Made by a program: the position numbers and the translations under genes. A stretch of 63,166 nucleotides of DNA, counting the filler. It is 5 parts of 5 records of this genome, joined end to end, with 100 filler letters (N's around TTAATTAATTAA, not from the genome) between each part and the next. Parts side by side here need not be neighbours in the genome. Positions count along the whole stretch, not along the records: positions 1 to 21,182 come from DRR723986_8937; 4 more parts are not named here. One strand, 5' to 3'. Within the stretch, counting starts at the first letter, position 1; each line of letters begins with the position of its first letter. The notes beneath the pieces are model-generated. The model had not been told where the DNA came from, did no database searches, and worked only from the letters and a program-made list of their open reading frames with translations. Of the stretch, positions 983 through 21,282 are shown one piece after another.

Positions 983-989
983 AGAGAGC

Positions 990-2239: not shown

Positions 2240-2240
2240 G

Positions 2241-2817: not shown

Positions 2818-2932
2818 CGCGCTCGCGCCTGCACCCCTGGAGGAGGCGCTTCTGGACCGATCCCGGACAACATGAGTCTTCTGGCACGGTGGTTCGCCGG
2901 TCCGTTACCTATACACTCGAAGGAGTTTTGCC

Positions 2933-3556: not shown

Positions 3557-3579
3557 GCTGCAGCCTTGCTTTAAAAATC

Positions 3580-3649
3580 GGGAGGCGGTCTCCGCCTCCC
3601 TTCCCCTTGCGGGAAAACTTGCAGAGCAGCCGCCATCGGCTGCTTTTTT
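3580..3649 (+). terminator. Two hairpins after rplY; the second is an intrinsic terminator
   Basis: GGGAGGCGG-TCT-CCGCCTCCC (3580-3600); AGCAGCCG-CCAT-CGGCTGCT followed by a T run (3625-3649). Confidence 0.65.
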
Positions 3650-3716
3650 GTTTCAGGATTAGCCAGCCTGTCTGCATTGCGCTAAATGCAGCACGCTCTA
3701 CCTTGAAAGGCACACC

Positions 3717-4505: not shown

Positions 4506-4556
4506 GGCCGGTCCCTTCAAGAACACCAGCGCAACGGGGCTGCCTGCCTTTGGCGG

Positions 4557-5162
4557 TCAGGACAGCGGCTGAACGTTGATGATCTCCACCCGCCTGTTGC
4601 GGCCGCTGGCCGGATCGCCCGGATCGACAGGACGGCTTTCGCCGTACCCCACCGGCACAAGCCGTTCACGGGGGATCGTATAGAACGCTGCCAGAAACTC
4701 CGCGACCATGAAGGCCCTTCGTTTCGACAGGTCCAGATTATAGGCCGACGTGCCGCGCAGGTCCGTGTGCCCGGCGATCTGGAAACGCATGTTCCTGAGC
4801 CGTGGATCCTGCAAGGCCTGTCCGAGCGCCTGCAACGTCAGAATGCCGTCGTTGGTCAGTGAGGCGGAATCGAACTCGAAATTGACCGTCAGATTGATGC
4901 GCGGCAGCTCCACTTCCGGCGGCAACTGGCCCTCGATGCTGATCCCGCGAAACGGGTGCGGTTCCTGCTTTCGCATGGACCGGGATTTCGGCGCGCCGGC
5001 GTCTGGCAACAACGCGCTGATGATCTGATCCGGCGTGACGGACTGAGCGGAGACGCCGGCTGGCAGCATCAAGGGGACCAGCAGCGCCAGAACGGGTGCC
5101 AATGCCAGGCGGGCGGTCGCAAATTCGATAAGAAAGCGCATGTCGAAACCTTTGAGTGTCAC
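4557..5162 (-). CDS. OmpA-family C-terminal (peptidoglycan-binding) domain protein, exported
   Basis: Signal peptide; FEFDSASL, IAGHTD, YNLDLSKRRA, GYGESRP, NRRVEI. Start could be 5141. Confidence 0.9.
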   Translation of the reverse strand: MTLKGFDMRFLIEFATARLALAPVLALLVPLMLPAGVSAQSVTPDQIISALLPDAGAPKSRSMRKQEPHPFRGISIEGQLPPEVELPRINLTVNFEFDSASLTNDGILTLQALGQALQDPRLRNMRFQIAGHTDLRGTSAYNLDLSKRRAFMVAEFLAAFYTIPRERLVPVGYGESRPVDPGDPASGRNRRVEIINVQPLS

Positions 5163-6853
5163 TCTTCCCGGATCGTCAAATGAAGGACGGCTGCTGAAAT
5201 CTCACGTGGCAGGCTCATTTCGTCCGGCCGGTCCGCCATCCCTGCCCGCAATGCCGTCAGGAAATATCTGTCGTCCGCGGTACCGGCGCCGCCTTCAGCG
5301 CTCACAGGCATGGAGAATTGCCCGGATCCGCCGTTTTCCAGTTCTTCCAGTTGGATGACGGGGCTATGAGCTGCAATCACGATAATGGCTTCCGATCCAG
5401 CAGGTGGCTGCACGGTGAACTTCTGACGCCCCTGCCGGCCATCGCCATAGACGAAACGGTCGCCGAATTGCACCTGCTGGCGTACCGGACCGCGACGCGG
5501 CAAGAGGTTCACCACAGTGCCGTCGGCCTGCAGATAGACGATGTAGAGAAACGAGGCGAAATCCGGCGCAGTCACCTCAAAGGCCAGCGAATCTCCGTAG
5601 CGCAGATCCGCGCTGCCTCCCAGGAGCCGAATGCGCGGTCGCGAAGGTTCCGCCAGTGGCCGGGCTAGGGTCTTCAGGGCTTCGCACACGGGCCAGGGCC
5701 TGACATCGATTTTCTGAAGCTGCTCGGGCGGAAACTCCGCTTCCAGTTTCCGGAGTGCTTCCTGTGTGCTCACGAAACCGGCGAGCAGCGGCATGCCGTC
5801 CGGCGTATCTTCGCTCACGTAAAGGCTGCTGCAGCTATCCCCCGCAAAGGCCACCTCATTGTCCCGGTCGGTTCTGGTCAGCCCTGGCACCGGACGCGGA
5901 GGCACGATGGACGTGCGCATGATCGACGCGTTGTGCATGTCGGCCTTCGTTGCCTCGTAGCTGATCCAGCCATACCCGTCTCCGGACCAGTATGGCCCCC
6001 AGGAGTTCTGGACGAGGAATGCCTGACGCCGTTCATCGTACCCGACGAACACCATCTGGTGGCCTCCGGCGGCCCCGCTGTGACGCCCGAGCGATCCCTG
6101 GTAGATCTCTCCCGATTTCAGATATTGCAGCGTCACCCCGTCCGGCGTCTGGGAGGACGGCACCACGCCGACCATCAGGAACCCGGTTGCCACGGGGTTC
6201 CCCGCCGCCAGCTGCTGCTTGATCGCATCCAGATCCCGGTCCGTCGCGTTACGGCGCTGGCGGCCCTTGTCGAACACGAACAGGAAGTCTCGAATGCGGA
6301 ACCTGTCGGGGGCCATCGTTGCGGTTTCCACCCGTTCCGAGCACATGGCAGCGTCCGGAATGTCGTCCTGGTCGGGAGAGCCGTTGCCCTTGAAATAGGC
6401 CATCGCCAGAAGCGCATGACTTCCGGCGGTTTCACACGCCTCCTGCCGGTTGCGGATCTGCGAATGGAGAAACGCCGGACTTGGCGTGAAGGTGCGGTTG
6501 CCGGGTTCCACGTTGTTTTCAAGCGCAGCGTAATATCCGCGCATGGCATACCCGATGGCATAGGAAACACAGCTGCCATATGTCTGCAGCAGGGGTGGTG
6601 GCATCATTGGCGACAGGTCGATCGCGTCGGGGATATAGGCCCGTGTGACATTTACCTGTCCGACGCCTTCCAGCAGCGCAGGATCGATCGGCGCATCGCC
6701 CAAAAGGCCCGTCAGATCACGCGGATTGAAGCTTTGAGCCGATGCCGGACTTACCGAGAAGGCAGTGGCACAAGTGGTGACGGCAGCCAGAGTGGCAAAC
6801 AGGCCGCCGGAAAATGCACACAGAAACCCGTGTTTCTTGCGACTGAAAATCAT
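5159..6853 (-). CDS. Exported papain-like (C1) cysteine peptidase with C-terminal DUF4384-like domain
   Basis: QTYGSCVSYA (oxyanion Gln and catalytic Cys), GGHQMVFVGYD (His), QNSWG (Asn); C-terminal FLYIVYLQADGTVVNLLP. Start reassigned to MIFSRKK because the longer ORF overlaps ychF. Confidence 0.85.
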   Translation of the reverse strand: MIFSRKKHGFLCAFSGGLFATLAAVTTCATAFSVSPASAQSFNPRDLTGLLGDAPIDPALLEGVGQVNVTRAYIPDAIDLSPMMPPPLLQTYGSCVSYAIGYAMRGYYAALENNVEPGNRTFTPSPAFLHSQIRNRQEACETAGSHALLAMAYFKGNGSPDQDDIPDAAMCSERVETATMAPDRFRIRDFLFVFDKGRQRRNATDRDLDAIKQQLAAGNPVATGFLMVGVVPSSQTPDGVTLQYLKSGEIYQGSLGRHSGAAGGHQMVFVGYDERRQAFLVQNSWGPYWSGDGYGWISYEATKADMHNASIMRTSIVPPRPVPGLTRTDRDNEVAFAGDSCSSLYVSEDTPDGMPLLAGFVSTQEALRKLEAEFPPEQLQKIDVRPWPVCEALKTLARPLAEPSRPRIRLLGGSADLRYGDSLAFEVTAPDFASFLYIVYLQADGTVVNLLPRRGPVRQQVQFGDRFVYGDGRQGRQKFTVQPPAGSEAIIVIAAHSPVIQLEELENGGSGQFSMPVSAEGGAGTADDRYFLTALRAGMADRPDEMSLPREISAAVLHLTIREE

Positions 6854-7085
6854 CGCGTCCCAATTCCCAAAACAATCGCCCAAAACACCCACACGACTAT
6901 AACCGATAAACAACCGGAGGGAAGCTTTCAGCCGGATCACATCGCCGGACGCCTTTCCTTTTGCCGCTTCATCCTGACATGCTCTTGACAAACACCCGCC
7001 CGCAGTCCGCCAAAGCCTTGACCTCTTGACCCGGCTCGGGCATTTAGCGCTGCAAAGTCTCAAGACCAACCGAAAGCGAACTCCC

Positions 7086-8186
7086 ATGGGTTTCCAGTGC
7101 GGCATTGTCGGACTGCCGAATGTCGGCAAGTCCACACTCTTCAACGCGCTCACCAAGACGGCAGCTGCACAGGCTGCCAACTATCCGTTCTGCACCATCG
7201 AGCCGAATACGGGCGAAGTTGCCGTTCCGGATCCGCGCCTCTACGCGATCCGTCAAGTTGCAGGGTCCAAGGAAGTCATTCCGACGCGCATCACCTTTGT
7301 CGACATCGCCGGCCTCGTGCGCGGCGCTTCCAAGGGCGAAGGCCTCGGCAACCAGTTCCTGGCCAACATTCGCGAAGTCGATGCCATCGCACACGTGCTG
7401 CGCTGTTTTGAAGACGACGACATCACCCATGTGGAAGGCACCGTCGACCCGATCGCCGATGCCGAAACGGTCGAGACCGAACTCATGGTCGCCGACATGG
7501 AAAGCCTTGAGCGCCGCATTGCACCGCTGAAGAAAAAGGCCTCCGGCGGCGACAAGGAAGCCAAGGCTGTGCTGCCCGTCATGGAAGCCGCCCTGGCCCT
7601 GCTGCAGGACGGCAAGCCGGCACGCGCTCTGGAAGTCTCCGGTCCGGATGAAGAGAAAATCCTGAAGGGTCTGAACCTCCTGACTGCAAAGCCGGTTCTC
7701 TACGTCTGCAACGTCGACGAGGCATCCGCAGGCGAAGGCAATGCCCTCTCCGCCAAGGTCGCCGAAAAGGCGAAGGCGGAAGGCGCTGCCGCCGTCGTGA
7801 TTTCCGCGGCCATCGAGGCGGAAATCTCCCAGCTCGACAAGGAAGAACAGGAAGAGTTCCTGGAAACCATCGGGCTTGAAGAGCCGGGCCTCGACCGGCT
7901 GATCCGCGCGGGCTACGGCCTGCTGGGCCTGATCACCTATTTCACGGCAGGCCCGAAGGAAACCCGCGCCTGGACCATCACCGAAGGCACCAAGGCCCCG
8001 GGCGCAGCCGGCGTCATCCATACGGATTTCGAACGCGGCTTCATCCGCGCGCAGACCATTGCCTACGACGATTACGTCGGCCTCGGCGGCGAAACCGCAG
8101 CCAAGGAAGCGGGCAAGGCACGCGACGAAGGCAAGGAATATGTCGTCAAGGACGGCGACGTCCTGCTCTTCAAATTCAACACCTGA
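7086..8186 (+). CDS. ychF: Redox-regulated ribosome-binding ATPase YchF
   Basis: GIVGLPNVGKSTLFNALT, ANYPFCTIEPN, DIAGLVRGASKGEGLGNQFL. Confidence 0.98.
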   Translation: MGFQCGIVGLPNVGKSTLFNALTKTAAAQAANYPFCTIEPNTGEVAVPDPRLYAIRQVAGSKEVIPTRITFVDIAGLVRGASKGEGLGNQFLANIREVDAIAHVLRCFEDDDITHVEGTVDPIADAETVETELMVADMESLERRIAPLKKKASGGDKEAKAVLPVMEAALALLQDGKPARALEVSGPDEEKILKGLNLLTAKPVLYVCNVDEASAGEGNALSAKVAEKAKAEGAAAVVISAAIEAEISQLDKEEQEEFLETIGLEEPGLDRLIRAGYGLLGLITYFTAGPKETRAWTITEGTKAPGAAGVIHTDFERGFIRAQTIAYDDYVGLGGETAAKEAGKARDEGKEYVVKDGDVLLFKFNT

Positions 8187-8346
8187 CGAAATCCCGCGCA
8201 GGCAGCCAGGCGCCGCCTGCGCGTTTCCCGTCCACTTCCACCTCCCGGTCAGCCGCCTTCCTCAGAACGCACGGAAACGGAAGATAAAGACATCCCCTCT
8301 AGGGTTACCCGGACAAACGGGAATTCGACCTGCAGGAGGGGCCAAT

Positions 8347-9645
8347 ATGGCGGGACGAAGCGACACCAGGATCCGCAAGATCATTGCGGGAACTGTGGGG
8401 AACACGCTGGAATGGTACGATTTCGCCGTCTACGGCTATCTTGCCCCCATCCTTGCGCAACAGTTTTTCCCGAGTGACGATCCGACCGTCAGCCTGATCA
8501 GCACCTTCGGTGTCTTTGCGGCAGGCTTCCTCATGCGTCCCATCGGCAGTCTGCTGCTCGGCCATATTGCCGACAAGACCGGTCGCAGCCGGGCCCTTCT
8601 GTTGTCCGTCGCCCTGATGGCCATTCCGACGACGCTGATCGCCTTCTTGCCGACCTACGATCAGATTGGCATTGCCGCACCCGTGCTGCTGACGCTGCTG
8701 CGGTTGCTGCAGGGACTTTCCGTCGGCGGCGAATACACCGGCTCGACCGTCTATCTTTACGAGATCGCCCCGCCCAAGCGTCGGTGTTTCACGGTTTCCT
8801 GGGCCCTGGTCGGGGCAACATTCGGCATTCTGCTCGGTTCCGGCGTGGCGGCACTGGCAACCGGCCTCCTGCCGGCGGACGATCTGGGAAGTTGGGGATG
8901 GCGCATTCCCTTCGCCTTCGGTCTGCTGGTCGGCCTGACCGGTTTCATGATCCGAAGCGGCACCAAGGCAGAAGAAAGGGATCAACCGCCCTCCTCGCAC
9001 GATCCTGTCAGTGCTCCGGTTGGCGAGGTCCTGCGCAACCACCGGCCCGCCCTGCTGCGGACGATAGCGTGCAACATCCTCAACGGCGTCGGCTTCTATC
9101 TGACGTTCGTCTATCTCACGTCCTACCTGGTCGACTACGTCAAGTTCACGGAAAGTCGGGCCCTGACGATCAACACCAGCGTGATGGTCGTCTTCATGCT
9201 GCTGTTGCCTATTGTCGGCTATCTCGCCGACAGGATCGACCGAAGAACCATACTGCTGTTCGGATCGGGCGGTGTTGCCCTCTTCGCCCTGCCGATGTTC
9301 TGGCTGGTGCATCATCCGGATCCGGTCATGGTCATTCTGGGCCAGCTCGGCATGGCCGTTATTCTCACCGCCTTCTTTGCCCCGCTCATGGCCGCCATGG
9401 TCGGCCAGTTCCCTGTGTCCGTGCGCGTGACCGGCTATTCCATCGGCTACAACATCCCGCTGGCGCTCTTTGGCGGCACGGCACCGCTGTTTGCCACCTA
9501 TCTGATCGACAAGACCCACCTGCAGCTTGCGCCGGCGTTCTACATGATCGCTGCCGGCCTGCTGGCCTTCGTGGTCATCTGGTTCATGCCTTCGGAGGAC
9601 GGTAGCATCAGTCAGGACGAAGAAGCGGAGCCGGCTCCAACGTAG
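8347..9645 (+). CDS. MFS transporter, metabolite:H+ symporter (ProP/CitA-like) family
   Basis: GNTLEWYDFAVYG, RLLQGLSVGGEY, WGWRIPF motifs; ~12 hydrophobic segments; GGAGG RBS before 8347. Confidence 0.9.
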   Translation: MAGRSDTRIRKIIAGTVGNTLEWYDFAVYGYLAPILAQQFFPSDDPTVSLISTFGVFAAGFLMRPIGSLLLGHIADKTGRSRALLLSVALMAIPTTLIAFLPTYDQIGIAAPVLLTLLRLLQGLSVGGEYTGSTVYLYEIAPPKRRCFTVSWALVGATFGILLGSGVAALATGLLPADDLGSWGWRIPFAFGLLVGLTGFMIRSGTKAEERDQPPSSHDPVSAPVGEVLRNHRPALLRTIACNILNGVGFYLTFVYLTSYLVDYVKFTESRALTINTSVMVVFMLLLPIVGYLADRIDRRTILLFGSGGVALFALPMFWLVHHPDPVMVILGQLGMAVILTAFFAPLMAAMVGQFPVSVRVTGYSIGYNIPLALFGGTAPLFATYLIDKTHLQLAPAFYMIAAGLLAFVVIWFMPSEDGSISQDEEAEPAPT

Positions 9646-9810
9646 TCCGGGGCAACAGGACCACCTGTATTCCGGCCTGAACGCCTCTGGTGTGCCCAAC
9701 AAACCGCGCGGCATAGGCTGGCTCCACCGGGGCGTGCATAACTCCCGCTCGACAGGATGCTGCCGAACCCGGTACAAGCAGGCTTTCGTCAATTCTCGAA
9801 AGTGTCTGCG

Positions 9811-10494
9811 ATGTCGACCGTCATTCCGGCTCCCTTCCCCACGATCCTGCCCGTCAGCGAAAGCCAGAAGGGTTTTCCAGTCCGCCGGGTCTATTGCGTC
9901 GGTCGAAACTATGCCGCTCATGCCGTGGAAATGGGCCACGATCCGAACAGGGAAGCGCCGTTCTTCTTCCAGAAGAACCCGGACAACCTCGATCCTTCCG
10001 GCGAGTTTCCCTATCCGCCCCTGTCCAGCGACGTGCATCACGAGGTCGAACTCGCGGTCGTTCTGAAGTCCGGCAAGCGCAGCATCCCGGCAGCCAATGC
10101 ACTTGAACATGTTTACGGCTACGCCGTTGCCCTCGACATGACCCGCCGCGACCTGCAGGCGGAGGCCAAGAAGGCGGGGCGCCCGTGGGAAGCCGCCAAG
10201 GCTTTTGAACGCTCTGCCCCTATCGGACGGATCATGCCGGCGGCAGACAGCGGCTTCCTCGACCAGGGCCGGATTGCACTCAGCGTGAACGGAGAGCTTC
10301 GCCAGGAAGGCGACCTCAATCAGTTGATCTGGAAAATACCGGAAATCATCGCCAAGCTGTCCGAGCTGTTCCAGCTTGGTGCGGGCGACGTCATCCTGAC
10401 CGGAACCCCCGCTGGTGTCGGTTCCGTCCAGCGCGGCGACCTCATGCTGGCGACCATCGACGGCTTGCCGGAGCTGACCGTCAGGGTCATTTGA
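9811..10494 (+). CDS. Fumarylacetoacetate hydrolase family protein
   Basis: RVYCVGRNYAAHA, HHEVELAV, LDMTRRDLQ, GDVILTGTPAGVG. Confidence 0.92.
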   Translation: MSTVIPAPFPTILPVSESQKGFPVRRVYCVGRNYAAHAVEMGHDPNREAPFFFQKNPDNLDPSGEFPYPPLSSDVHHEVELAVVLKSGKRSIPAANALEHVYGYAVALDMTRRDLQAEAKKAGRPWEAAKAFERSAPIGRIMPAADSGFLDQGRIALSVNGELRQEGDLNQLIWKIPEIIAKLSELFQLGAGDVILTGTPAGVGSVQRGDLMLATIDGLPELTVRVI

Positions 10495-10805
10495 CAGGCC
10501 CGGGTGGGCGTGTGCGCGCTCGCGTTGAGATCCCCGGTATTGCCGCATTGCAAGGGCCTGGAAAGCAGCCGCTTTCCGGGCCTGGTCTTATTGGCCTTCT
10601 CAAGCCCTTGAAAGCTGCGGAACCTTTTGGTGGCAATCCGTGTTTAGAAGTCGTGGTCCCGGATTCTCCGACAACGGCGCTGACCAGCTCCGTTCGACCG
10701 GAAATGCAAAGGAAGACGGACCAAGTCCTTTAAGTGGTCTTGAGATTGCGGGTCGGCCATGTTCAGGTCGAACCCGGATTTTGAAGTCGTTGCCGGAGCC
10801 TGTTC

Positions 10806-12581
10806 GTGACCTTTGACCAGATTGCCCTGTTCGTCCTCTTCGGCACTGTCTTCGCACTGCTGGTCTGGGGCCGTATCCGCTTCGATCTCATTGCCTTTGG
10901 CGCGTTGATCCTGGGTGCGTTCCTGGGTCTCGTCCCTTCCGAGGAAATCTTCTCCGGCTTCGGCCATTCCGCCGTCATGATTATTGCCCTCGTGCTGATC
11001 GTCTCGCGCGGGCTGATGAACTCAGGCGCTGTGGAATTGATTGCAGGTGTGGTGATATCCGCTTCCAGAGGCCTGTCGCGGCATATCGGTCTCATGGCCA
11101 TCGTCGGCGCCAGTCTGTCGGCAATCATCAATAACGTGGCTGCGCTGGCATTGCTCATGCCGCTCGATATGGAGGCAGCCAAGAAGGCGGAACGTTCGCC
11201 CGGCCTCTCCCTGATGCCCCTGTCTTTCGCAACCATCCTTGGCGGCATGATCACCCTGATCGGAACACCGCCAAACATCGTGATTGCGCAGTATCGTTCG
11301 GATGCCTTTGGTGCGCCCTTTTCCATGTTCGATTTTGCCCCTGTCGGCCTCGTGGTCGCAGTGACAGGCATTGCCTTTGTTGCCCTGTTCGGCTGGCGCC
11401 TGCTGCCCCGCCATTTCCGGGACAAGCCGAAACAGGAGGGCTTTGCCGAAAGCCTTTATGCGGCCGAACTGAAGGTCGGGGAAATCTCGGAAGAAAAGCC
11501 GCTTACCGTCGGCGATCTTTACCCCGTTGCCGACGAGAAGGATGTCGCCATCATCGGCCTCATCCGCAATGGCCGGCGAGTACGCGGGTTTGCCCGCCGC
11601 GAGGCGATCAAGTCCGGAGATTACCTGTTCGTGGAAGGCGACCCCAAGGCTATCGAGGCCTTCATGGGCGCCGCCAAGCTGGAATTCGCCGGCTCAGAAC
11701 AGCACAAGGGCGGCCTGAACAACGACGCCCTGTCACTGATCGAGGCAATCGCGCCGGACAATGCCAGGATCATCGGCCGGTCGAGTTTCGACATGCGTCT
11801 TCTTTACGGCCACAGCGTTACCTTGCTCGGCATTTCCAGGCAGGGTCGCCGCGTTCAGAAACGCGTTCGCCACGAAGAGATACGCCCGGGTGATGTGCTT
11901 CTGCTGCTGGGTACCCCGGAGCGGCTGGAAAGCGCCTGCGCCTGGCTTGGTGTTCTGCCTCTGGAAGGACGCAAGACGGGCGTCATGCAGCGCAACAAGG
12001 CCTGGCTGGCCATCGCAGGCTTTGCCCTTGCGATTGCAGCAGCCGTTGCCGGCCTTGCCTATCTCCCGGTGGCCCTGGCTGCCTGTGTGATTTTTTATGC
12101 CGCCGCCGGCCTGATCAGTGGGTCGGAGGTTTATCAGTCCGTGGAGTGGAAGGTGATCGTGCTGCTCGGCTCGTTAATCCCCCTTGGACAAGCATTTGAG
12201 GAAGCAGGCAACGCACAGCTGATCGCCGACGGTATTCTCGCCCTCACCTCGACGGCTCCGGCATGGGTCACCCTCGCCATCCTGATGGTGGTGACGATGA
12301 CCCTTTCCGACTTCCTGAACAACGTTGCCACCTGCCTGATCGCAGCGCCCATCTCGGTCCAGATCGCCAATTCCCTTCAGGTGAACTCTGACCCGTTCCT
12401 GATGGCGGTAGCGGTTGCATCGTCCTGTGCGTTCCTGACGCCGATCGGCCACAAGAACAACACCATCATCATGGGCCCGGGCGGCTATCGCTTTGGCGAC
12501 TACTGGCGTATGGGCCTGCCGCTCGAGATCCTCGTCCTGACCGTCAGCATCCCGGCAATCCTGCTGTTCTGGCCGCTCTGA
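10806..12581 (+). CDS. SLC13/DASS family permease with TrkA-C domains
   Basis: TLIGTPPN, INNVA/LNNVA and FLTPIGHKNN...GPGGYRFGDY motifs; central soluble domains. Confidence 0.9.
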   Translation: MTFDQIALFVLFGTVFALLVWGRIRFDLIAFGALILGAFLGLVPSEEIFSGFGHSAVMIIALVLIVSRGLMNSGAVELIAGVVISASRGLSRHIGLMAIVGASLSAIINNVAALALLMPLDMEAAKKAERSPGLSLMPLSFATILGGMITLIGTPPNIVIAQYRSDAFGAPFSMFDFAPVGLVVAVTGIAFVALFGWRLLPRHFRDKPKQEGFAESLYAAELKVGEISEEKPLTVGDLYPVADEKDVAIIGLIRNGRRVRGFARREAIKSGDYLFVEGDPKAIEAFMGAAKLEFAGSEQHKGGLNNDALSLIEAIAPDNARIIGRSSFDMRLLYGHSVTLLGISRQGRRVQKRVRHEEIRPGDVLLLLGTPERLESACAWLGVLPLEGRKTGVMQRNKAWLAIAGFALAIAAAVAGLAYLPVALAACVIFYAAAGLISGSEVYQSVEWKVIVLLGSLIPLGQAFEEAGNAQLIADGILALTSTAPAWVTLAILMVVTMTLSDFLNNVATCLIAAPISVQIANSLQVNSDPFLMAVAVASSCAFLTPIGHKNNTIIMGPGGYRFGDYWRMGLPLEILVLTVSIPAILLFWPL

Positions 12582-12589
12582 AACAGAGC

Positions 12590-13489
12590 TCAGGCAGCAG
12601 GCTTCAGAGGCAGGCAGATGTCGGTTAGCAGATCGGCCGGCGCCGTGTCGCGCGGGTTGTTGAGATAGACTTCGAGACAGGGCGCATCGTCCGGTTCACG
12701 GCCAGACTGCGTCAGCCACTCGCCGTAAAGCCACTCGTAGGCCCATTTCATGTCGGCGTAGGGTCCCTTGTAACGCAGCACCGCGTAGTCACCGGCACGC
12801 GTTTCCCGCTTTTCGAGCGGAGCATCGACCGGGAAGCTATCGTTTATGACCGCTCCGGCAGCCGACTGCAGATCATCTTCGGCAACATGGGTCGGGTCGG
12901 AATAATAGAGCGCCTTCATCGCACCGATCCGGTCGACCAGCTGACGGCTCACCAGAATGCCGAAAAGTGTCTCAAACGCCTTGCCGATCTCCATGTAGGC
13001 GCCTCGGTGAGGCAGCACGGCCAGGGTTTCGGACGGAAGGGTTTTGACGGAAACGTCATGCATTGGAGCTGGTCCTTTCTGTTTGGGAAGTGGTGCACCA
13101 CCGTTGGCCGGCTGAACCCGGCGCGAGGAAACGGAGGAGCGGTAGGCGGTGGGGGTCTGGCCGTAAGCCTGTTTGAAGCTGCGTGAAAAAGCCTCCAGAC
13201 TGCCGTAACCGGCCCGTTTTGCGACGACGGGCAAGGCCAGGTCCGTATAGGCAAGGTCTCCCGCGGCACGATGAAGGCGCAGACGCTTGACCGTCGCGAA
13301 GATGGATTCGCCATAGGTCGACTGCCAGACCCTGTGCCAGTGTGAGGGAGAAAGGGCCGCCACCTCGGCAAGCGTCGCCAGATCAGGATCCTCGTCGAGG
13401 TTGGCGTAGATATATTCGATCACCCTTGTGAAACGGCGGACATAGCCGTTGTCTCGCGGTGAGAGTGTGAGCTTTTCGTGATTGGTCAT
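12590..13489 (-). CDS. AraC-family regulator with GyrI-like effector domain
   Basis: N-terminal double HTH (RLRLHRAA, FSRSFK); C-terminal YKGPY...EVYLNNP...TDICLPL. Confidence 0.92.
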   Translation of the reverse strand: MTNHEKLTLSPRDNGYVRRFTRVIEYIYANLDEDPDLATLAEVAALSPSHWHRVWQSTYGESIFATVKRLRLHRAAGDLAYTDLALPVVAKRAGYGSLEAFSRSFKQAYGQTPTAYRSSVSSRRVQPANGGAPLPKQKGPAPMHDVSVKTLPSETLAVLPHRGAYMEIGKAFETLFGILVSRQLVDRIGAMKALYYSDPTHVAEDDLQSAAGAVINDSFPVDAPLEKRETRAGDYAVLRYKGPYADMKWAYEWLYGEWLTQSGREPDDAPCLEVYLNNPRDTAPADLLTDICLPLKPAA

Positions 13490-13678
13490 GGACTTGGCCC
13501 CGTTCGATTGATGGGACCCTAGCACCATGCTTTTTGATAAATCTTGCTGACTTCCACCCTCTCACGCCGGCACATTCCGGAAGAACAAGGTCTTTCTTCC
13601 AGAAAGACAAAACAGGCACTGGCTTCCGGCGTCGGAATGGCCATGATGTACGCAACTCAAAAACAGGGGAGTTGAACC

Positions 13679-14578
13679 ATGACCACCCAGAAACGCATTC
13701 TGTTCACCGGCGGTTCCGGCAAGGCCGGACGGCACGTCGTTCCCTATCTGCTGGCGCAGGGACATCGCGTCGTCAACGTCGACCTGAAACCGCTTGATCA
13801 TCCAGGTGTCGACAACCTCATCGCCGACATCACCTCATCGGGTGAAATGTTCAACGTCATGACCAGCTACGCCAATTTCGATGAACTGGAACCGGGCAAC
13901 GGGGTGCCAACTTTCGATGCGGTGGTCCATTTTGCCGCTGTGCCGCGCATTCTCATTCATCCGGACAACAGAACCTTCGAAGTCAATACGATCGGCACAT
14001 ACAACGTCATTGAAGCCGCCGTGAAGCTCGGCATCCGCAAGATCGTGCTCGCCTCTTCGGAAACCACCTACGGCGTCTGTTTCGCCGATGGCGTGGTCGA
14101 CCCGAAGGTGCTACCCGTCGAAGAAGATTATGACGTCGACCCGATGGACAGTTACGGGCTTTCCAAGGTGGTCAACGAACAGACCGCCCGCGCCTTCCAG
14201 CGCCGGTCCGGCTTCGATATCTATGCGCTGCGGATCGGCAATGTCATCGAGCCGCACGAATACGACCGGTTCCCGGATTTCTTCGCCAATCCTGCGCAAC
14301 GCCGCAGAAACATCTTCTGCTATATCGATGCGCGCGACCTCGGTCAGATCGTCGACCGCTGCCTTGAAAAGGACGGGCTCGGCTACCAGGTCTTCAACGC
14401 CGGCAACGACACGAATTCCGTCGATATTCCGAATGCGGAAATCCTCAAGCGCTTCTTCCCCGATGTGCCGCTGAGCCGGGAACTCGGCGAGCACGAGGCC
14501 CTGTTCTCGAACCGCAAGATCCGCGAGGTTCTGGGCTTCCAAGAAGAGCACAACTGGCGCAAATACGTGACCGTATAA
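13679..14578 (+). CDS. NAD(P)-dependent epimerase/dehydratase (extended SDR)
   Basis: TGGSGKAG Rossmann motif; YGLSK (YxxxK). Confidence 0.9.
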   Translation: MTTQKRILFTGGSGKAGRHVVPYLLAQGHRVVNVDLKPLDHPGVDNLIADITSSGEMFNVMTSYANFDELEPGNGVPTFDAVVHFAAVPRILIHPDNRTFEVNTIGTYNVIEAAVKLGIRKIVLASSETTYGVCFADGVVDPKVLPVEEDYDVDPMDSYGLSKVVNEQTARAFQRRSGFDIYALRIGNVIEPHEYDRFPDFFANPAQRRRNIFCYIDARDLGQIVDRCLEKDGLGYQVFNAGNDTNSVDIPNAEILKRFFPDVPLSRELGEHEALFSNRKIREVLGFQEEHNWRKYVTV

Positions 14579-14696
14579 CCGGCGATCCAGGCAAGAACGA
14601 AGGCTGGCGGATTTAGTTTTACTTCCGATACGGCTGGGACTAGCTTCTGAACGCAACACTGTCGGGCAGCAAGGCTGCCCACCTGGGAAACGTGCC

Positions 14697-15059
14697 ATGA
14701 AGCTACTGAAATCTGCCACTCTCGGCCTTGCCCTCCTGGCGTCTGCGACTGCAGCCGTCGCACAGGGAACCGGCTCGCAAGGGTACTTCCAGATCTACAA
14801 CAACACCGAAGACAACGTCGTCGTCGGCTTCTACACCAATGACGGCGACGGCTGGTCGGACAACTGGCTGTCCGGACCGCTTTCGCCGGGTGAAAGCGCG
14901 AAAGCCGAGTTCGCCGCCGACACCGGCAATTGCGCGCAGACCTTCCAGGTCGGCTGGCTGGCCGACGACGATACCGAAGTTCTCGACGATCCGATCGACA
15001 TCGATATCTGCGAAGCCAGCAACGTCTACATGGATGATAACGAGATCTATTACGACTGA
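14697..15059 (+). CDS. Small secreted acidic hypothetical protein
   Basis: Signal peptide ending AVA; very Asp/Glu-rich mature part with two Cys; GC-biased codon usage. Confidence 0.75.
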   Translation: MKLLKSATLGLALLASATAAVAQGTGSQGYFQIYNNTEDNVVVGFYTNDGDGWSDNWLSGPLSPGESAKAEFAADTGNCAQTFQVGWLADDDTEVLDDPIDIDICEASNVYMDDNEIYYD

Positions 15060-15079
15060 TCTTTTCTTCCAATCTCAAG

Positions 15080-15107
15080 GCGGAAACGCGGACCATCGCG
15101 TTTCCGC
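15080..15107 (+). terminator. Hairpin after the small secreted protein gene
   Basis: GCGGAAACGCG-GACCAT-CGCGTTTCCGC, perfect 11-bp stem; no clear T tract. Confidence 0.5.
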
Positions 15108-15131
15108 GGACTGCCAACACCACCGGAATTC

Positions 15132-15590
15132 ATGACCGATCTCCTTTATTTTGAAGACTTCGAACCTGGTCAGGTCTTCGAGCTGGGCTCCCTCACCGTC
15201 AGCAGGGACGAAATCATCGATTTCGCTGCCGAGTTCGACCCGCAGCCTTTCCACCTCGACGAAGAGGCCGGCACGGCATCCATCCTCGGCGGGCTCGCCG
15301 CCTCCGGCTGGCATACAGGTTCGATGGTGATGCGCCTGCTTGCCGAAAATTTCCTGACCAGGACAAGCGGCTGTGGTTCGCCGGGTATCACCAAGCTGCA
15401 GTGGAAGCGTCCCGTTCATCCAGGTGACTGCCTAACGGCCCGGGTCGAAATACTCGACACAAGAGACTTGCGGTCGAAACCGGACCTTGGCCTTGTCAAC
15501 ATTCGCGTGACGGCCAAGAACCAGAAGGGCATTGAAGTGCTCGTCTGGGAAAACCCGAACCTGTTCGCAAGACGGGAGGTCGCCCGGTGA
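15132..15590 (+). CDS. MaoC-family (hotdog) dehydratase
   Basis: YFEDF, FDPQPFHLDEEA, ASGWHT. Confidence 0.9.
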   Translation: MTDLLYFEDFEPGQVFELGSLTVSRDEIIDFAAEFDPQPFHLDEEAGTASILGGLAASGWHTGSMVMRLLAENFLTRTSGCGSPGITKLQWKRPVHPGDCLTARVEILDTRDLRSKPDLGLVNIRVTAKNQKGIEVLVWENPNLFARREVAR

Positions 15591-16066
15591 GTGCCTTTTT
15601 CGAAGATATTGAAGTCGGTGACACGCTTGACCTTGGCGAACACACCTTCACCCGGGAAGACATCGTGCGTTTTGCGGAAAAATACGATCCGCAGGCTTTT
15701 CATCTCAGCGAGGAGGCCGCCGCGCAGACCCATTTCGGGCGCCTGTGCGCTTCCGGTTGGCACACGGCAGCGGTTTTCATGAAGCTCTGGGTCGCAAGGC
15801 ACAAGGCACTTCAGGAAGAAGCGCTGGCGGCAGGGCAAACACCAGCCAATATCGGCCCCTCGCCCGGGTTTGAGGATCTCAAGTGGATCAGGCCGGTCTT
15901 TGTTGGTGACACGCTGCGATACCGGCGTGTGGTCACCGGCAAGACCGAAAGCCGGACCCGCCCGGACTGGGGTCTCGTTCATTCCGACATGCAGGCCTTC
16001 AATCAGGACGGCACGCTGGTGTTCTCCTTCAAGGGCACGGTGTTCGTCGAACGCCGCAAGCGCTAA
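15587..16066 (+). CDS. MaoC-family dehydratase, tandem paralogue
   Basis: FFEDI, YDPQAFHL, ASGWHT; GTGA overlap with the previous gene. Confidence 0.9.
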   Translation: MSAFFEDIEVGDTLDLGEHTFTREDIVRFAEKYDPQAFHLSEEAAAQTHFGRLCASGWHTAAVFMKLWVARHKALQEEALAAGQTPANIGPSPGFEDLKWIRPVFVGDTLRYRRVVTGKTESRTRPDWGLVHSDMQAFNQDGTLVFSFKGTVFVERRKR

Positions 16067-16093
16067 CCGGACAATCAGTCGGCCCTGTTAAAA

Positions 16094-16136
16094 CGCAAAA
16101 GCGCGCTGCGTCCTCAAGACGGCAGCACGCTTTGCG
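16094..16136. terminator. Bidirectional terminator-like hairpin between convergent genes
   Basis: CGCAAAAGCGCGCTGCGTC-CTCAA-GACGGCAGCACGCTTTGCG. Confidence 0.55.
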
Positions 16137-16179
16137 GTTGGCAATCCTGACTTGCCGTGTCTCGCATGCGAGCTGTGCC

Positions 16180-16422
16180 TCAGCGGCAGACGTCCAGGAT
16201 CCACAAGAAGGCCATCGGCACCATGGTCAGCGCCGGCAGGATGATCGCCGGGTATCCGAAGGCATAGATCGACACCGCCCAGATCATCGCGAGATTGGCG
16301 ATGAACCAGTATTTGGCATCTTCCGCGCCATAAAGCGCTTCCTTGAGAAACAGGTTCAAGACGGGCACAGCCAGAAGCAGCCGTAGCACCAGGACTTCCT
16401 TGGGGGCAGATGAAGCAGACAT
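16180..16422 (-). CDS. Small membrane hypothetical protein (~80 aa)
   Basis: Three hydrophobic stretches; GGAGAAGAG RBS before ATG at 16422. Confidence 0.65.
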   Translation of the reverse strand: MSASSAPKEVLVLRLLLAVPVLNLFLKEALYGAEDAKYWFIANLAMIWAVSIYAFGYPAIILPALTMVPMAFLWILDVCR

Positions 16423-16486
16423 CTCTTCTCCGGATCTTAGGGAAAACACGTAGAGTTTGTCCCTAATCCGTTTGCCTGTTCCAGGC

Positions 16487-16523
16487 ACTGCGGCAAACGG
16501 ACATCATGCCCATTTGCCGCAGT
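16487..16523 (-). terminator. Hairpin just downstream of the dsyB stop
   Basis: ACTGCGGCAAA (16487-16497) / TTTGCCGCAGT (16513-16523), perfect 11-bp arms; no T tract. Confidence 0.5.
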
Positions 16524-16536
16524 TTGCCGCGTGATG

Positions 16537-17559
16537 CTATTCCGGCTTGCGGCCGTGCACCAGCATCGTCATGCCCGGGATCATCACTTCAACTGCGATA
16601 TCGGTGAAGCCGGCGGCTTCCATCAAGCCGGCAACGTAGGAACTCGTGATCGAACGGGCTTCCGGGTTGAAGGCGGTGTGCTGAAGCTGCCAGAGCGCGG
16701 CCAGCTTCGGCCCCTCGCGGTTTTCGTCGACCATGAAATCATGCACCATGAAGTCACTACCCGGTGTCAGAACCTCGAAGGCCTTGCGCACAAGCCCGGG
16801 AATGGCCGTGCCCGGGACACCGGAAAAGAGATAGGACATCAGCACTGCGTCCGCACTGTCCGGCCATGTGTCCTTCAGGGCATTGCCCGGCGCGTAGCGG
16901 ATGCGGTCCTGCAGGCCTTCTTCGGCAATGAACTCTTCGCCCACCTTGGCGACATTCGGAAAATCCAGAACGGTTGATCGCAGTCCCGGATACGCCTTGC
17001 AAAGCGAAATCGAGAAGGCCCCGGTGCCACCGCCAACGTCCAGCAACTGCTTGGCAGCGGACAGATCCACGAGCTTGGCAAGTCCCCGCCCGGGCCCAAG
17101 CGAGCCTGCATGCTGAGACCGGGAATAAAGCCGTGCTTCTTCCGGGTCGCTGAACCACGTCTCGTAGGAAGCAACCTGGTCGTCCTCCAGACTGTCCGTC
17201 AGGGCGTCGTTGAGCTGGGTCATGAAGGGGTACATCTGCTTGTCGATCTGAAACCGCAGATAGTCGCCGAAATCATACTTCCGTCCTTTCACCAGAAACG
17301 CCTCCGCTGCGGGCGAATTGGTGAAGCCTGCTCCCTCCCGGCGCACCAGCCCGAGGCTCGTAAGCGCGGTCAACAGTGTTGTGGCGCGATCAAGATCAAG
17401 CTCGCTTTCTTCAGCAACTTGCTGTGGCGTCAAGGTCTTTTCGGAAAGCAGTGAAAACAAATCTACATGAAGTGCAGAAAAAAGAGCCTTGGAGCCCATA
17501 AATCCGAAAGCAATATCTGAAATTTCCTCAGCCGTTTCCAAGGACCTGGCGACGGGCAT
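16537..17559 (-). CDS. dsyB: MTHB (4-methylthio-2-hydroxybutyrate) S-methyltransferase of DMSP biosynthesis
   Basis: 340 aa; dimerisation domain plus class I SAM domain (LLDVGGGTG). Family-specific blocks AFGFMGSKALF, YDFGDYLRFQ, YSRSQHAGSLGP, LMSYLFSGVPG, AALWQLQHTAF. Strong GAGGAGG RBS. Recognised from memory of the family, not from a search. Confidence 0.92.
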   Translation of the reverse strand: MPVARSLETAEEISDIAFGFMGSKALFSALHVDLFSLLSEKTLTPQQVAEESELDLDRATTLLTALTSLGLVRREGAGFTNSPAAEAFLVKGRKYDFGDYLRFQIDKQMYPFMTQLNDALTDSLEDDQVASYETWFSDPEEARLYSRSQHAGSLGPGRGLAKLVDLSAAKQLLDVGGGTGAFSISLCKAYPGLRSTVLDFPNVAKVGEEFIAEEGLQDRIRYAPGNALKDTWPDSADAVLMSYLFSGVPGTAIPGLVRKAFEVLTPGSDFMVHDFMVDENREGPKLAALWQLQHTAFNPEARSITSSYVAGLMEAAGFTDIAVEVMIPGMTMLVHGRKPE

Positions 17560-17637
17560 AAATTATCCTCCTCAGGAATTCTGAGCACAAATGTGCGGAA
17601 TTTTTCCGTTCAGGAAAAATGAACTTGGGAATGAGCA

Positions 17638-17665
17638 AGTATAACTATTGTGCGCCGCAATGCAA
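17638..17665 (-). promoter_or_regulatory. Putative sigma70 promoter of dsyB
   Basis: Minus strand reads TTGCAT-N16-TATACT in an AT-rich patch about 80 nt upstream of the ATG. Confidence 0.55.
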
Positions 17666-17847
17666 ATTCCGCTCCCCATCCGGCAAGAGCTGACGCGGGA
17701 GCCGGTTTTTGTCCTTGAACTTTGGCAGATCCCGGTCTTCGATTAAGCTGAGGTCGATGCTGTCAGGCATCGAAAGCGTTCTCAAACGCCTGGTAATTTG
17801 CCTTTCTGCAGTATACCGCCCGCAAGAAACCGAACAGGACCGACCGA

Positions 17848-18744
17848 GTGCCTTTTCTCGACTTTCCCGCACAGCTTCCGGAAAACCGGACACCACGTGC
17901 CGTGATCTTCGGTGCCGGACACGGCAGCACTTACCCTGGCAAGGACAGCAGCGGGTACACCGGAGCAGCCGATGCCATTCGCGCAGCCAGTCAGGAAGAT
18001 GCCGGTCTCGTCGGCCACTGGGACTTCGATCTCGGCGGACCGCTTTTCGAAGGTCATCCGGTATGCTGCACCGACATCGGCAATATCGACACCCGGCTGC
18101 ACGACAACGCAGGCAACCGGGCACGGATCGAGGCACAAACACGCTCGATCCTGGCACTGCCAGCCGTTCCGATCCTGCTTGGCGGTGATGATTCCCTACC
18201 GATCCCCTTCCTCGCCGCCTTCGCTGATCAGGGGCCCCTGTGGGTGCTGCAGATAGATGCCCATATCGACTGGCGCGATGAGATCGATGGCGAGCGCTAC
18301 GGCTACTCCAGCCCGATGCGCCGCATCAGCGAGATGCCGCATGTTGCGGGCCTCGTTCAGGTTGGCCTGCGTGCCGTCGGCAGCGCCGGCAAAACCGAAA
18401 TCGAGGCTGCACAAACCTATGGTAGCCGCTTTGTCACAGCGCGCGAGGTCCACGCAGAAGGCATCTCGGCCGCGTTGAAGCATATTCCACAAGGCGCGCG
18501 CTGCGTCGTCACGCTGGACTGTGACGGCCTTGACCCGGCCATCATGCCCGGCGTTGCCGCGCGCACGCCCGGCGGGCTCACCTACACGCAGGTGATCGAT
18601 CTGATTGCGGGTCTGGGCAGACGCGCAAGGATCGTTGGGTTTGACCTTGTCGAATTCTACCCGCCGAACGATATCGACGGCCTCAGCGCGCTGACCGCCT
18701 CAAGACTTTTGGTCAACGCCGTCGGCGCGATCGTCCGGCAATAA
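17848..18744 (+). CDS. Arginase/agmatinase (ureohydrolase) family protein
   Basis: GGDDS, DAHIDWRD, YGYSSPMRR, DCDGLDP, PGGL motifs; start codon uncertain (GTG). Confidence 0.88.
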   Translation: MPFLDFPAQLPENRTPRAVIFGAGHGSTYPGKDSSGYTGAADAIRAASQEDAGLVGHWDFDLGGPLFEGHPVCCTDIGNIDTRLHDNAGNRARIEAQTRSILALPAVPILLGGDDSLPIPFLAAFADQGPLWVLQIDAHIDWRDEIDGERYGYSSPMRRISEMPHVAGLVQVGLRAVGSAGKTEIEAAQTYGSRFVTAREVHAEGISAALKHIPQGARCVVTLDCDGLDPAIMPGVAARTPGGLTYTQVIDLIAGLGRRARIVGFDLVEFYPPNDIDGLSALTASRLLVNAVGAIVRQ

Positions 18745-18822
18745 CAGGATGCTCGGACAGGTATTCGGGCTGGCAAGACCGATGCAGAAAAGGTGGGAAA
18801 GAAAGGGGATGTCGCCAACACC

Positions 18823-19302
18823 TCAAAGGCTGCGGGCAAACAGGACTTCGTCGCGGATTTCGATACCGTAGTCGCCACGCAGCGGGATTTCCGGCTTCTT
18901 CTCGCGCTCGGCGTCGATGACACCTTGCGCGATCCGCTCCAGACGGAAGCCGCGCCGTTGATAGAAGCGGAAGGCGTCGAGGTTGTCGTTGGACGTACGG
19001 ACGGTCAGCCGGTTGATGCCGGACGCCTTTGCTTCATCGACCACCGCGTTCAGCAGCAGTGTTCCGGTGCCACCCCAGCGGCTGAGCGAGTCGAGCGTGA
19101 GGATTTCCCATTCGCTTTCCCGCTTGATCAGCGTGACGAGCCCCACAAGATCGTCGCCTGCGTAGGCAACATAACCCGGCAGGCTCGACGCATCGACGAT
19201 CTCGCCGTCCAGTAGCATTTCGGGGCCTGCCCATCGGTCTGCCAGAAGCTGGAACACAGCTTCCTTGTCTTCCTCGTTGATCCGTCGGATGATCACGCTC
19301 AT
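18823..19302 (-). CDS. GNAT-family N-acetyltransferase
   Basis: RWGGTGTLLL acetyl-CoA motif; NDNLDAFRFYQRRGF. Confidence 0.9.
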   Translation of the reverse strand: MSVIIRRINEEDKEAVFQLLADRWAGPEMLLDGEIVDASSLPGYVAYAGDDLVGLVTLIKRESEWEILTLDSLSRWGGTGTLLLNAVVDEAKASGINRLTVRTSNDNLDAFRFYQRRGFRLERIAQGVIDAEREKKPEIPLRGDYGIEIRDEVLFARSL

Positions 19303-19419
19303 GGTCTGCCCTGCCTCCAGATCAGCGGCCCTTCAATCGTCGCCAATTGAACAACCATTTGCCGATCGCTTCCATAATTTGCGAGCACCCTTTCTGCGGT
19401 CGTCTGGCCGCAGGATGCC

Positions 19420-20082
19420 CTATCGGTGAATGACGCGGGATGCCAGAGGCGTGCGCGCCTGCCAACGCGCTCGCTCCAGCTCCGGGTCGATATGCTCTTC
19501 TTCCGGATAACCGACGCATAGATAAGCCACGAGGCGCCAACCGGCGTCAACCTGCAGCGCCTCTGTCACCGCGTCCGGATCAAGGATCGACACCCAGCCA
19601 ACCCCGACACCCTCGGCACGAGCCGCCAGCCAGAATGTGTGGATCATGCTTACCGTGGAATAGGCCAGCGTTTCCGGCATGGTCAGCCGGCCCAGTCCGT
19701 GGCCCTGTTCCGGGTCGTCGTCGCAGAAAATCGCCAGATGCACGGGGGCTTCCTTCAGCCCCGCCAGTTTGAGCTGGCGATAGGCGAGCGCCTTGTCGTC
19801 ACTGTAGGTCCTGGCGGCTTCTTCGTTTTCCGCTTCGAAGCTCGCGATGATCCGCCCACGCGCCTCGGCGCTGTCGACAACAACAATTCGCCAGGGTTGA
19901 CTGTTGCCAACAGAGGGGGCGAGGTCTGCCAGTTGCAGAAGATGGTCGAGAGCGCCTGCCGGCAACGGCTCCTGCTTGAAACGGCGCACGTCCCGTCGCC
20001 ATTTCAGAAGGGTCTCGAAATCCTTCTGAAATTTCGCTGAAAAGTCCGGTATCACGTCTCTGCCCTCGGCTCCTCCCGCCAT
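19420..20082 (-). CDS. bluB: 5,6-dimethylbenzimidazole synthase
   Basis: WRRDVRRF, APSVGNSQPWR, LAGLKEAP, GHGLGR..MPE, GVGWVSILDP. Confidence 0.93.
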   Translation of the reverse strand: MAGGAEGRDVIPDFSAKFQKDFETLLKWRRDVRRFKQEPLPAGALDHLLQLADLAPSVGNSQPWRIVVVDSAEARGRIIASFEAENEEAARTYSDDKALAYRQLKLAGLKEAPVHLAIFCDDDPEQGHGLGRLTMPETLAYSTVSMIHTFWLAARAEGVGVGWVSILDPDAVTEALQVDAGWRLVAYLCVGYPEEEHIDPELERARWQARTPLASRVIHR

Positions 20083-20089
20083 GACAGAC

Positions 20090-20638
20090 CTAGTGACCCG
20101 GAAATTCCACGAGGGTGCGCACTGGAACGTTCATCGCTTCCAGTTTCTTGCGCCCGCCGAGATCTGGCAGATCGACGATAAAGCACGCCGACTCGATGTT
20201 AGCGCCCATCGACCGCAACAATTTGCAGGCAGCCTCTGCCGTTCCACCGGTAGCAATAAGGTCGTCAACCAGGATGACACGGTCACCCGGTTTGATCGCA
20301 TCCTTGTGCATTTCCATCTCATCCAGGCCATATTCCAGGGAATAGGCGATACGGACGGTTTCGTGCGGGAGCTTGCCCTTCTTCCTGATCGGCACGAAGC
20401 CGGCGGACAGCTGGTGCGCGACCGCGCCCCCGAGAATGAAACCGCGCGCCTCAATGCCCGCAATCTGATCGACCTTGGAGCCGGCCCAGGGCTGCACCAG
20501 GGCATCGACCGCCCGGCGGAAGGCACGGGCATCGCCGAGCAGCGTCGTGATATCCCGGAACAGGATGCCCTCTTTCGGATAGTCCTTGATCGTGCGGATT
20601 GCACTGACAAGCTCATCCTGAATGGTCTGTGCGGTCAT
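20090..20638 (-). CDS. apt: Adenine phosphoribosyltransferase
   Basis: [38 protein letters not shown]. Confidence 0.97.
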
Positions 20639-20773
20639 CGGGATATCTCTCTGTTAAAATAGTTCCAGGCATCTGCCCCGGCCGGTGGTTATAGCAAGTT
20701 TGACCTGCCGGTCGAAGCAATTTCGCTTTGTCTCAAGGGGTTATGCCGGCCACACTTTCAACCGGCAATCCGG

Positions 20774-21182
20774 TTAGGTCCGGTTCAGGATCCGTCCTGC
20801 GACAGCGTCGAGCTTCGCCACCAGCGCCGGGTCGCGCTTGTCCGGTGCGGTCATCATGGCAAACTCCAGCGCAGTATCGGACCCGGCCGGGCAGGACTGA
20901 TGTTCGCGCGGCAGATCCCTTGCGACACGGGCAACAAGCCTCTGGGCGTTTTCCGCGTTCTCGTGAAGAACCTTGATGATAGCCTGAATATCGACTTCGC
21001 CGTGGTCCGGGTGCCAGCTGTCATAGTCGGTGACCATCGCGATGGTGGCGTAGGAAATCTCAGCCTCACGGGCAAGCTTTGCTTCCGGCATGTTGGTCAT
21101 GCCGATGACGTCGCAGCCCCAGGACCGGTAGAGCTGGCTTTCAGCTAGAGAAGAGAACTGCGGGCCTTCCATGGCCAGATAG
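20774..21182 (-). CDS. mtnP: S-methyl-5'-thioadenosine phosphorylase, 3' part (truncated by contig end)
   Basis: MEGPQFSS.AES, VIGMTNMPEAKLAREAE, MVTDYDSW. Confidence 0.92.
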
Positions 21183-21282
21183 NNNNNNNNNNNNNNNNNN
21201 NNNNNNNNNNNNNNNNNNNNNNNNNNTTAATTAATTAANNNNNNNNNNNNNNNNNNNNNNNNNNNNNNNNNNNNNNNNNNNN
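21183..21282. other. Artificial contig spacer
   Basis: N44-TTAATTAATTAA-N44; base composition changes sharply across it. Confidence 0.99.

Follow-up and report, generated by a model that had tools for sequence, protein, structure and literature searches.

An orthologue of Roseibium aggregatum dsyB on the first contig of a five-contig stretch of DNA

The stretch of DNA analyzed here (the window, 63,166 nucleotides) carries a methyltransferase gene, dsyB, on its first contig (Table 1). The ORF list bears out the intact 340-aa gene that the first-pass annotation had described at this position; that annotation had omitted the strand, which is minus. The gene is preceded by a ribosome-binding site and a predicted sigma-70-type promoter, and is followed by a stem-loop and a small ORF. 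An arginase-family gene is divergent from dsyB, and apt is located close to the end of the contig, where it adjoins a truncated phosphorylase-superfamily ORF.

Table 1. Features of the dsyB locus and of the contig that carries it, in coordinates of the window.
Feature	Coordinates	Strand	Description and basis
Contig 1, the only part belonging to the dsyB organism	1..21182		60.1% GC; linker map; colinear with IAM 12614
Small ORF directly downstream of dsyB	16180-16488	-	Probable true start ATG 16422; no Pfam family
Stem-loop	16487..16523	-	17 pairs (2 G-U), 3-nt loop; 13 nt past the stop codon; a 5-bp hairpin then follows
dsyB CDS, 340 aa	16537..17559	-	ATG start, intact ORF; Pfam, PDB, and IAM 12614 matches
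Shine-Dalgarno GGAGGA	17566-17571	-	6 nt ahead of the ATG; read from the sequence
Sigma-70-type promoter (predicted)	17638..17666	-	-35 TTTGCA (17666-17661), 17-nt spacer, -10 TATACT (17643-17638); about 78 nt upstream of the ATG; consensus scan
Arginase-family gene, divergent from dsyB	17848-18744	+	In this position in 4 of 80 loci (L002, L009, L010, L011)
Phosphorylase-superfamily ORF	20774-21172	-	Matches PNP_UDP_1 (profile positions 150-232 of 233); truncated where contig 1 ends; adjoins apt
Artificial joint, 100 nt	21183..21282		N44 + TTAATTAATTAA + N44; sequence read

The window is made up of five contigs, and the joint that closes the first of them (N44 + TTAATTAATTAA + N44) recurs at 43327-43426, 50175-50274, and 57961-58060. 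The five segments have GC contents of 60.1, 39.8, 69.7, 50.6, and 68.6%, in order, and this spread of 40-70% indicates that the contigs come from different organisms. Because the window consists of five contigs, statements about "this heterotroph" are limited to positions 1-21182. The earlier ranking of dsyB as the most significant system in the window thus compares genes of different organisms. The second segment (21283-43326, 40% GC) encodes a fused E1 dehydrogenase, a MiaB-like radical-SAM enzyme, a LytTR two-component pair, and a PfkB kinase, together with M16, M61, and S41 peptidases, the RNase P protein, a TsaB-like protein, DUF5723, and DUF2480, and it clearly derives from an organism other than that of the dsyB contig. 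In view of DUF5723 and DUF2480, this segment resembles a piece of a Bacteroidota genome. The low-GC block at 21-43 kb is a separate contig behind an N linker, and the possibility that it is an island acquired horizontally beside dsyB was rejected on that ground.

The product of the gene has the two-domain layout of a family-2 methyltransferase that is expected of DsyB, with an N-terminal dimerisation domain (PF08100, Dimerisation, residues 8-90, E 1.9e-14) and a C-terminal SAM-binding domain (PF00891, Methyltransf_2, residues 131-318, E 3.9e-21). In a phmmer search of all PDB chains, the best matches were 7wdq_A ("SAM-dependent MTHB methyltransferase") and 7wdw_A ("DSYB") at 434.7 bits (E 1.8e-129), and the alignment to 7wdq_A runs without gaps from residues 7 to 340 of the query and 4 to 337 of the chain. 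The next PDB sequence, RedM, scored 98.5 bits, which places the full-length similarity to solved DsyB more than 330 bits above that to any other methyltransferase. The hydroxyindole O-methyltransferase 4a6d_A (ASMT) was sixth in the PDB list at 73 bits (E 2.3e-19), more than 360 bits under DsyB. No NCBIfam model reached its cut-off for the protein; the best, TIGR02716 for the C-20 methyltransferase BchU (BchU/CrtF type), scored 74.4 bits against a cut-off of 276.1. The sequence blocks FMGSKALF, YDFGDYL, SQHAGSLGP, and LWQLQH, which had been quoted as characteristic of DsyB, are all found, at residues 20, 95, 148, and 289, respectively. The generic annotation that had been expected for such a gene is also seen among its relatives, as no source name among the 120 matches listed mentions DsyB or DMSP.

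The gapless alignment to 7wdq_A gives a constant offset of +3 to the Nisaea numbering. The offset given in the first-pass annotation is therefore exact, and all 11 of the residues it listed (Y100, Q104, Y132, Y145, Q149, H294, S153, G176, D199, A227, and S242) match. In Nisaea DsyB, MTHB is reported to be bound by Y97, Q101, Y129, Y142, Q146, and H291, and any substitution of these residues severely lowers activity (PMC10989797); the corresponding Y100, Q104, Y132, Y145, Q149, and H294 of the window protein are identical at all six positions. The SAM-binding residues reported for the same enzyme are S150, G173, D196, D223, A224, and S239 (PMC10989797), and the window protein is identical at five of the six (S153, G176, D199, N226, A227, and S242). 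The exception is the twelfth published residue, D223, which was missing from the earlier list and corresponds to N226. Of 21 aligned family members, at least 90% have Asn here, among them an R. aggregatum protein and two Nisaea proteins, and N226 is therefore regarded as the usual state of the family and not as a defect.

In the account of the Nisaea enzyme, dimerisation is assigned to the N-terminal domain and SAM binding to the Rossmann-type domain at the C-terminus, with MTHB between the two; methyl transfer is proposed to occur via proximity and desolvation, with no catalytic base or metal (PMC10989797). The window enzyme would be predicted, as a DsyB, to convert MTHB to 4-dimethylsulfonio-2-hydroxybutyrate (DMSHB) by SAM-dependent S-methylation. 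On the transamination route from methionine to DMSP, this would be the committed step. The cloned dsyB of L. aggregata IAM12614 is functional according to Curson et al. and complements dsyB mutants (PMC7494906), and an L. aggregata dsyB mutant is reported to make no DMSP (PMC10989797). The Nisaea enzyme, which is just 59% identical to L. aggregata DsyB, is active and complements its dsyB mutant (PMC10989797).

Of the 8000 candidates scored in a word-indexed protein search, 1484 had E ≤ 1e-10. Among the matches listed, the highest-ranking named relatives belong to Roseibium sp. LAB1 and Stappia sp. BW2 (96%), and many Roseibium and Labrenzia species come next (77-89%). The protein of Roseibium aggregatum IAM 12614 (locus L002) is identical to the window protein at 323 of 340 positions (95%) without gaps. 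With 95% identity over 100% of the length, the window protein exceeds the threshold used in PMC11306096, which asks for ≥40% identity to a ratified sequence at 70% coverage or more. A scan of genomes yielded 600 pattern matches and 501 confirmed relatives, out of which 80 loci (L001 on) were taken for comparison, and the ORF has the same length of 340 aa in 25 of the first 26 Stappiaceae loci (L001-L026).

The boundary of the family was examined with an exhaustive search of 50%-identity representatives, which gave 9429 matches at E ≤ 0.001 and 235 at E ≤ 1e-30. The identity of these representatives to the window protein declines smoothly from 57% to about 27%, and for this reason a cut-off alone does not define the DsyB family. 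An alignment of 129 rows was built from the window protein, 31 of the 80 loci, and those 97 of the 150 listed representatives that have 300-410 aa, the other 53 being fragments or fusions that were excluded. The maximum-likelihood tree was obtained with a quick method (LG+G4, support by SH-aLRT only) and rooted at the midpoint. All 32 rows that represent the window protein and the loci have the full MTHB-binding hexad Y-Q-Y-Y-Q-H, as do 14 of the 97 near-full-length representatives; those at about 30% identity mostly have x-gap-x-F-M-M at the hexad positions.

In this tree, the window protein groups with those of Stappia sp. BW2 and IAM 12614 (SH-aLRT 99), and this group is nested in a Roseibium clade of 13 rows (support 97), which lies within a clade of 28 rows that also contains Nisaea, Thalassobaculum, and Paracoccaceae proteins (support 97) and, with these, within a bacterial clade of 35 rows (support 99). 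Across the midpoint root from the DsyB side are 66 rows, each with at most three of the six hexad residues. The phylogeny that had been proposed as a check on the first-pass annotation hence places the protein inside the bacterial DsyB clade, with cluster representatives, other than the published non-functional relatives, serving as outgroups. Its identification as DsyB is well founded on the PDB match, the full MTHB hexad, the 95% identity to the IAM 12614 protein, and the position in the tree. The annotation was likewise right to call the system described rather than new, as this is a routine orthologue of the founding DsyB. The identity of the window gene as dsyB is correct; the gene is already known, and knowledge of the enzyme is not extended by it.

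Two further groups of relatives were seen near the edge of the family. A separate clade (P0127, P0130, P0131, P0132, P0135, P0137, P0139, P0155, P0158, and P0170), at 34-45% identity to the window protein, is without H294, and its hexad is further altered by Tyr-to-Phe substitutions or in other ways. Members of this clade that exceed 40% identity could pass as DsyB under an identity threshold. In addition, P0129 (544 aa), P0138 (568 aa), P0140 (619 aa), P0184 (692 aa), and P0237 (724 aa), all outside the tree, may be fusions because the DsyB-like domain makes up only part of the chain.

The chromosomal neighborhood was compared by tblastn of the neighboring proteins of the window against the 80 loci. 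In Stappiaceae, dsyB is flanked on one side by apt, a nitroreductase gene, and a GNAT gene and on the opposite side by two MaoC-type hydratase genes. Among the 80 loci, 29 have apt near dsyB and 28 have the MaoC pair, for which there are two further, weaker matches; these neighbors are common to Stappiaceae only and are not shared by loci outside the family. In about half of the Stappiaceae loci, dsyB is on the opposite side of the MaoC pair, the order differing between L013, L016, L018, L021-L024, L026-L030, and L035 on the one hand and L001-L010, L014, L015, L017, L019, and L020 on the other. Since apt, nitroreductase, and GNAT stay fixed while dsyB is either upstream or downstream of the MaoC pair, this difference points to a local rearrangement. 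The arginase-family gene is, to judge from its few occurrences, a variable insertion between GNAT and dsyB. The small downstream ORF, hydrophobic by eye, is present only in the closest relatives L001, L002, and L009 (3 of 80 loci). A functional link of dsyB to its neighbors was rejected, as synteny is confined to Stappiaceae and both the arginase-family gene and the small ORF are variable. The context of dsyB reads as a conserved position maintained by vertical inheritance of a chromosomal gene, and neither as an operon nor as an island.

No other DMSP gene was recognisable on contig 1 (1-21182). The truncated phosphorylase ORF next to apt may encode a methylthioadenosine phosphorylase of methionine salvage. 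At the other end of the contig, positions 1-122 match many dispersed short repeats of the IAM 12614 genome (G002), with cores of about 28-30 nt at 96-100% identity and units of about 105-120 nt at 71-83%.

Upstream of dsyB, the first-pass annotation had noted an RBS of its own and a promoter-like element, and both are present. The RBS is the GGAGGA listed in Table 1, and GAGGAGG is retained in most of the aligned Roseibium upstream regions. The promoter scan alone is at chance level, with one site found against 0.6 ± 0.8 in shuffles. The site is phylogenetically conserved: among 18 aligned Roseibium upstream regions with a mean column identity of 40%, the invariant positions are TTGC of the -35 element, TAT..T of the -10 element, and one GC pair in the spacer, and the pattern TTGC-N17-19-TAYnnT occurs in 28 of 33 upstream regions and in 50 of 2000 shuffled sequences. 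There is thus good comparative evidence that TTTGCA-17-TATACT is a real promoter. Conservation extends to much of the 17-nt spacer (consensus TTGCAyTGCnnnGCACAATAG-TATAAT), and the flanks have diverged past alignment. With up to two mismatches, the fuller promoter block was found once per genome, at dsyB, in two relatives, with no matches in the control. A regulon with a common promoter block was rejected, as dsyB is the sole match in the genomes of these two relatives. Because the spacer is conserved and the block occurs once per genome, at dsyB only, it is conceivable, if rather doubtful, that the block holds the operator of a putative regulator by which DMSP synthesis would be tied to salinity or nitrogen supply.

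Sequence near-identical to dsyB is present in 14 RNA-library runs from six studies (≥59% of sampled words), and contigs that are 95-99% or more alike span dsyB in all four runs compared. These contigs are no proof of transcription because DNA can occur in such libraries. RNA-library contigs from two studies end at 17619 (X5) and 17597 (X12), and those of X1 and X2 run through; the two ends give a weak hint of a transcript start just downstream of the -10 element. The 5′ leader gave no support for a riboswitch or a conserved hairpin, as the mean z of 22 leaders was only -0.73 against dinucleotide shuffles. Among these leaders, 16 had z below 0 and one below -2, with stem-loops of different sequence visible by eye in several species, and Rfam gave no match at E ≤ 1 within 16300-17900. 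The leader also contains, at 17590-17620 on the minus strand, two small palindromes, TTTTTCC-N5-GGAAAAA and GCACA-TT-TGTGC, and L001 and L002, the nearest relatives, retain both, with TC at the center of the second.

The hairpin that had been reported downstream of dsyB is real, though it is no canonical terminator. The 106-nt stretch around it (16440-16545) has a minimum free energy of -46.6 kcal/mol (z -4.88), and none of 200 shuffles folds as well. A reading as a canonical intrinsic terminator was rejected: the stem lacks a U tract, and the site went unflagged in the terminator scan. Two terminator-like matches of that scan inside the dsyB ORF are at chance level (2.4 expected). The same hairpin lies 3′ of dsyB in the closest relatives L001 and L002, and several other loci, among them L013, L016, L018, L027, and L028, have a GC-rich stem and then a T run after dsyB. 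From the conserved sigma-70-type promoter and the strong stem-loop after the stop codon, we infer that dsyB looks like a single-gene unit.

Roseibium (Labrenzia) is the genus in which dsyB was discovered, and R. aggregatum IAM 12614 provides the closest point of comparison. Its dsyB has the same length of 340 aa, the same promoter block, and the same downstream hairpin, and the gene order is also that of the window (apt, nitroreductase, GNAT, arginase-family gene, dsyB, small ORF, MaoC pair, epimerase). The -10 element differs, being TATAAT in IAM 12614 and TATACT in the window. Positions 1-20000 of the window are colinear with IAM 12614 at 86-87% nucleotide identity, and such a low value over the surrounding 20 kb means that the host is a different species or a distant strain. 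We infer from this comparison that the host of contig 1 is probably a Roseibium species other than IAM 12614. The comparisons presented here identify the window gene, on sequence grounds, as an orthologue of Roseibium (formerly Labrenzia) aggregata DsyB at the ancestral chromosomal position.

The DsyB of Nisaea denitrificans (PDB 7WDQ and 7WDW) shares with the window protein a gapless full-length alignment and the two-domain architecture, at an identity of about 60% as judged from other Nisaea proteins (59-62%). In contrast, the window protein has three extra N-terminal residues and N226 in place of D223, and the Nisaea loci (L037, L042, L068, and L076) have none of the neighboring genes of the window. 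Eukaryotic DSYB from haptophytes and dinoflagellates is reported to catalyze the same reaction at about 33% identity to DsyB, probably by the same mechanism (PMC10989797). A clade of 10 rows with 34-42% identity is sister to the bacterial clade, carries the hexad Y-Q-Y-Y-Q-H in nine of its rows, and may represent the eukaryotic DSYB group; the window protein is far from this clade and lies within the bacterial Stappiaceae branch. Other S-methyltransferases serving DMSP synthesis, DsyG/DsyGD, DSYE, MmtN, and BurB, are described as separate enzyme families. According to the literature, DsyG and DSYE perform the same MTHB methylation as DsyB, and MmtN and BurB belong to the methylation pathway and act on methionine.

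The explanation that best accounts for these observations is that the window protein is a DsyB converting MTHB to DMSHB, encoded by an orthologue in the ancestral position that forms a single-gene unit, in a host that makes DMSP. As read from the comparisons above, this explanation is very probably correct as a whole, and its last part, taken separately, is likely. Among the alternatives, the one that survives best is that the protein is a true DsyB in a host that does not accumulate DMSP, either through a missing pathway step or through expression that is conditional on high salinity or nitrogen limitation. The lack of another recognisable DMSP gene on contig 1 would fit, as would the dependence of dsyB transcription and DMSP production on salinity and nitrogen that is reported for Nisaea (PMC10989797). 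This alternative is nevertheless improbable, as the presence of dsyB is described as reporting the ability to make DMSP (PMC10989797) and as a robust indicator of DMSP synthesis, the closest relative IAM 12614 has a functional dsyB in the same context (PMC7494906), and dsyB sequence occurs in the RNA libraries of several studies.

A protein of the DsyB clade that is inactive or has a shifted substrate is a still slimmer prospect. It would draw on the 17 of 340 residues that differ from the IAM 12614 protein and on the fragility of DsyB activity, none being detectable on expression in E. coli according to PMC10989797. However, none of the 17 differences falls on a published binding residue, the ORF keeps the length of 340 aa seen in 25 of the 26 loci L001-L026, and enzymes that are just 59% identical are reported to be active (PMC10989797). 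The chance that the gene encodes a generic family-2 O-methyltransferase (ASMT-like, natural-product, or BchU/CrtF type) with a fortuitous resemblance to DsyB is negligible: Pfam gives only Methyltransf_2 and Dimerisation, the relatives carry generic source names, and the top NCBIfam match is BchU, but the BchU model (74.4 bits against a cut-off of 276.1), ASMT (4a6d, 73 bits against 434.7 for DsyB), and the methyltransferases of about 30% identity, which are without the MTHB hexad and on the other side of the tree, refute such a reading as far as PDB scores, hexad, and tree can.

DMSP serves as a major osmolyte in the sea and gives rise to DMS, a climate-active gas; DsyB marks bacteria that are able to make DMSP. 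Recognition of DsyB is of value to annotation, since its relatives bear generic public names among the 120 matches listed and no NCBIfam model names DsyB. The hexad Y-Q-Y-Y-Q-H offers a simple discriminator and flags relatives of 38-45% identity, which might be taken for DsyB at a 40% threshold. Caution is needed in that the window mixes contigs of unrelated organisms. The conserved promoter could be used for the study of dsyB regulation, and the copy in the window adds a further Roseibium orthologue to the founding DsyB, in a host that is likely to make DMSP.
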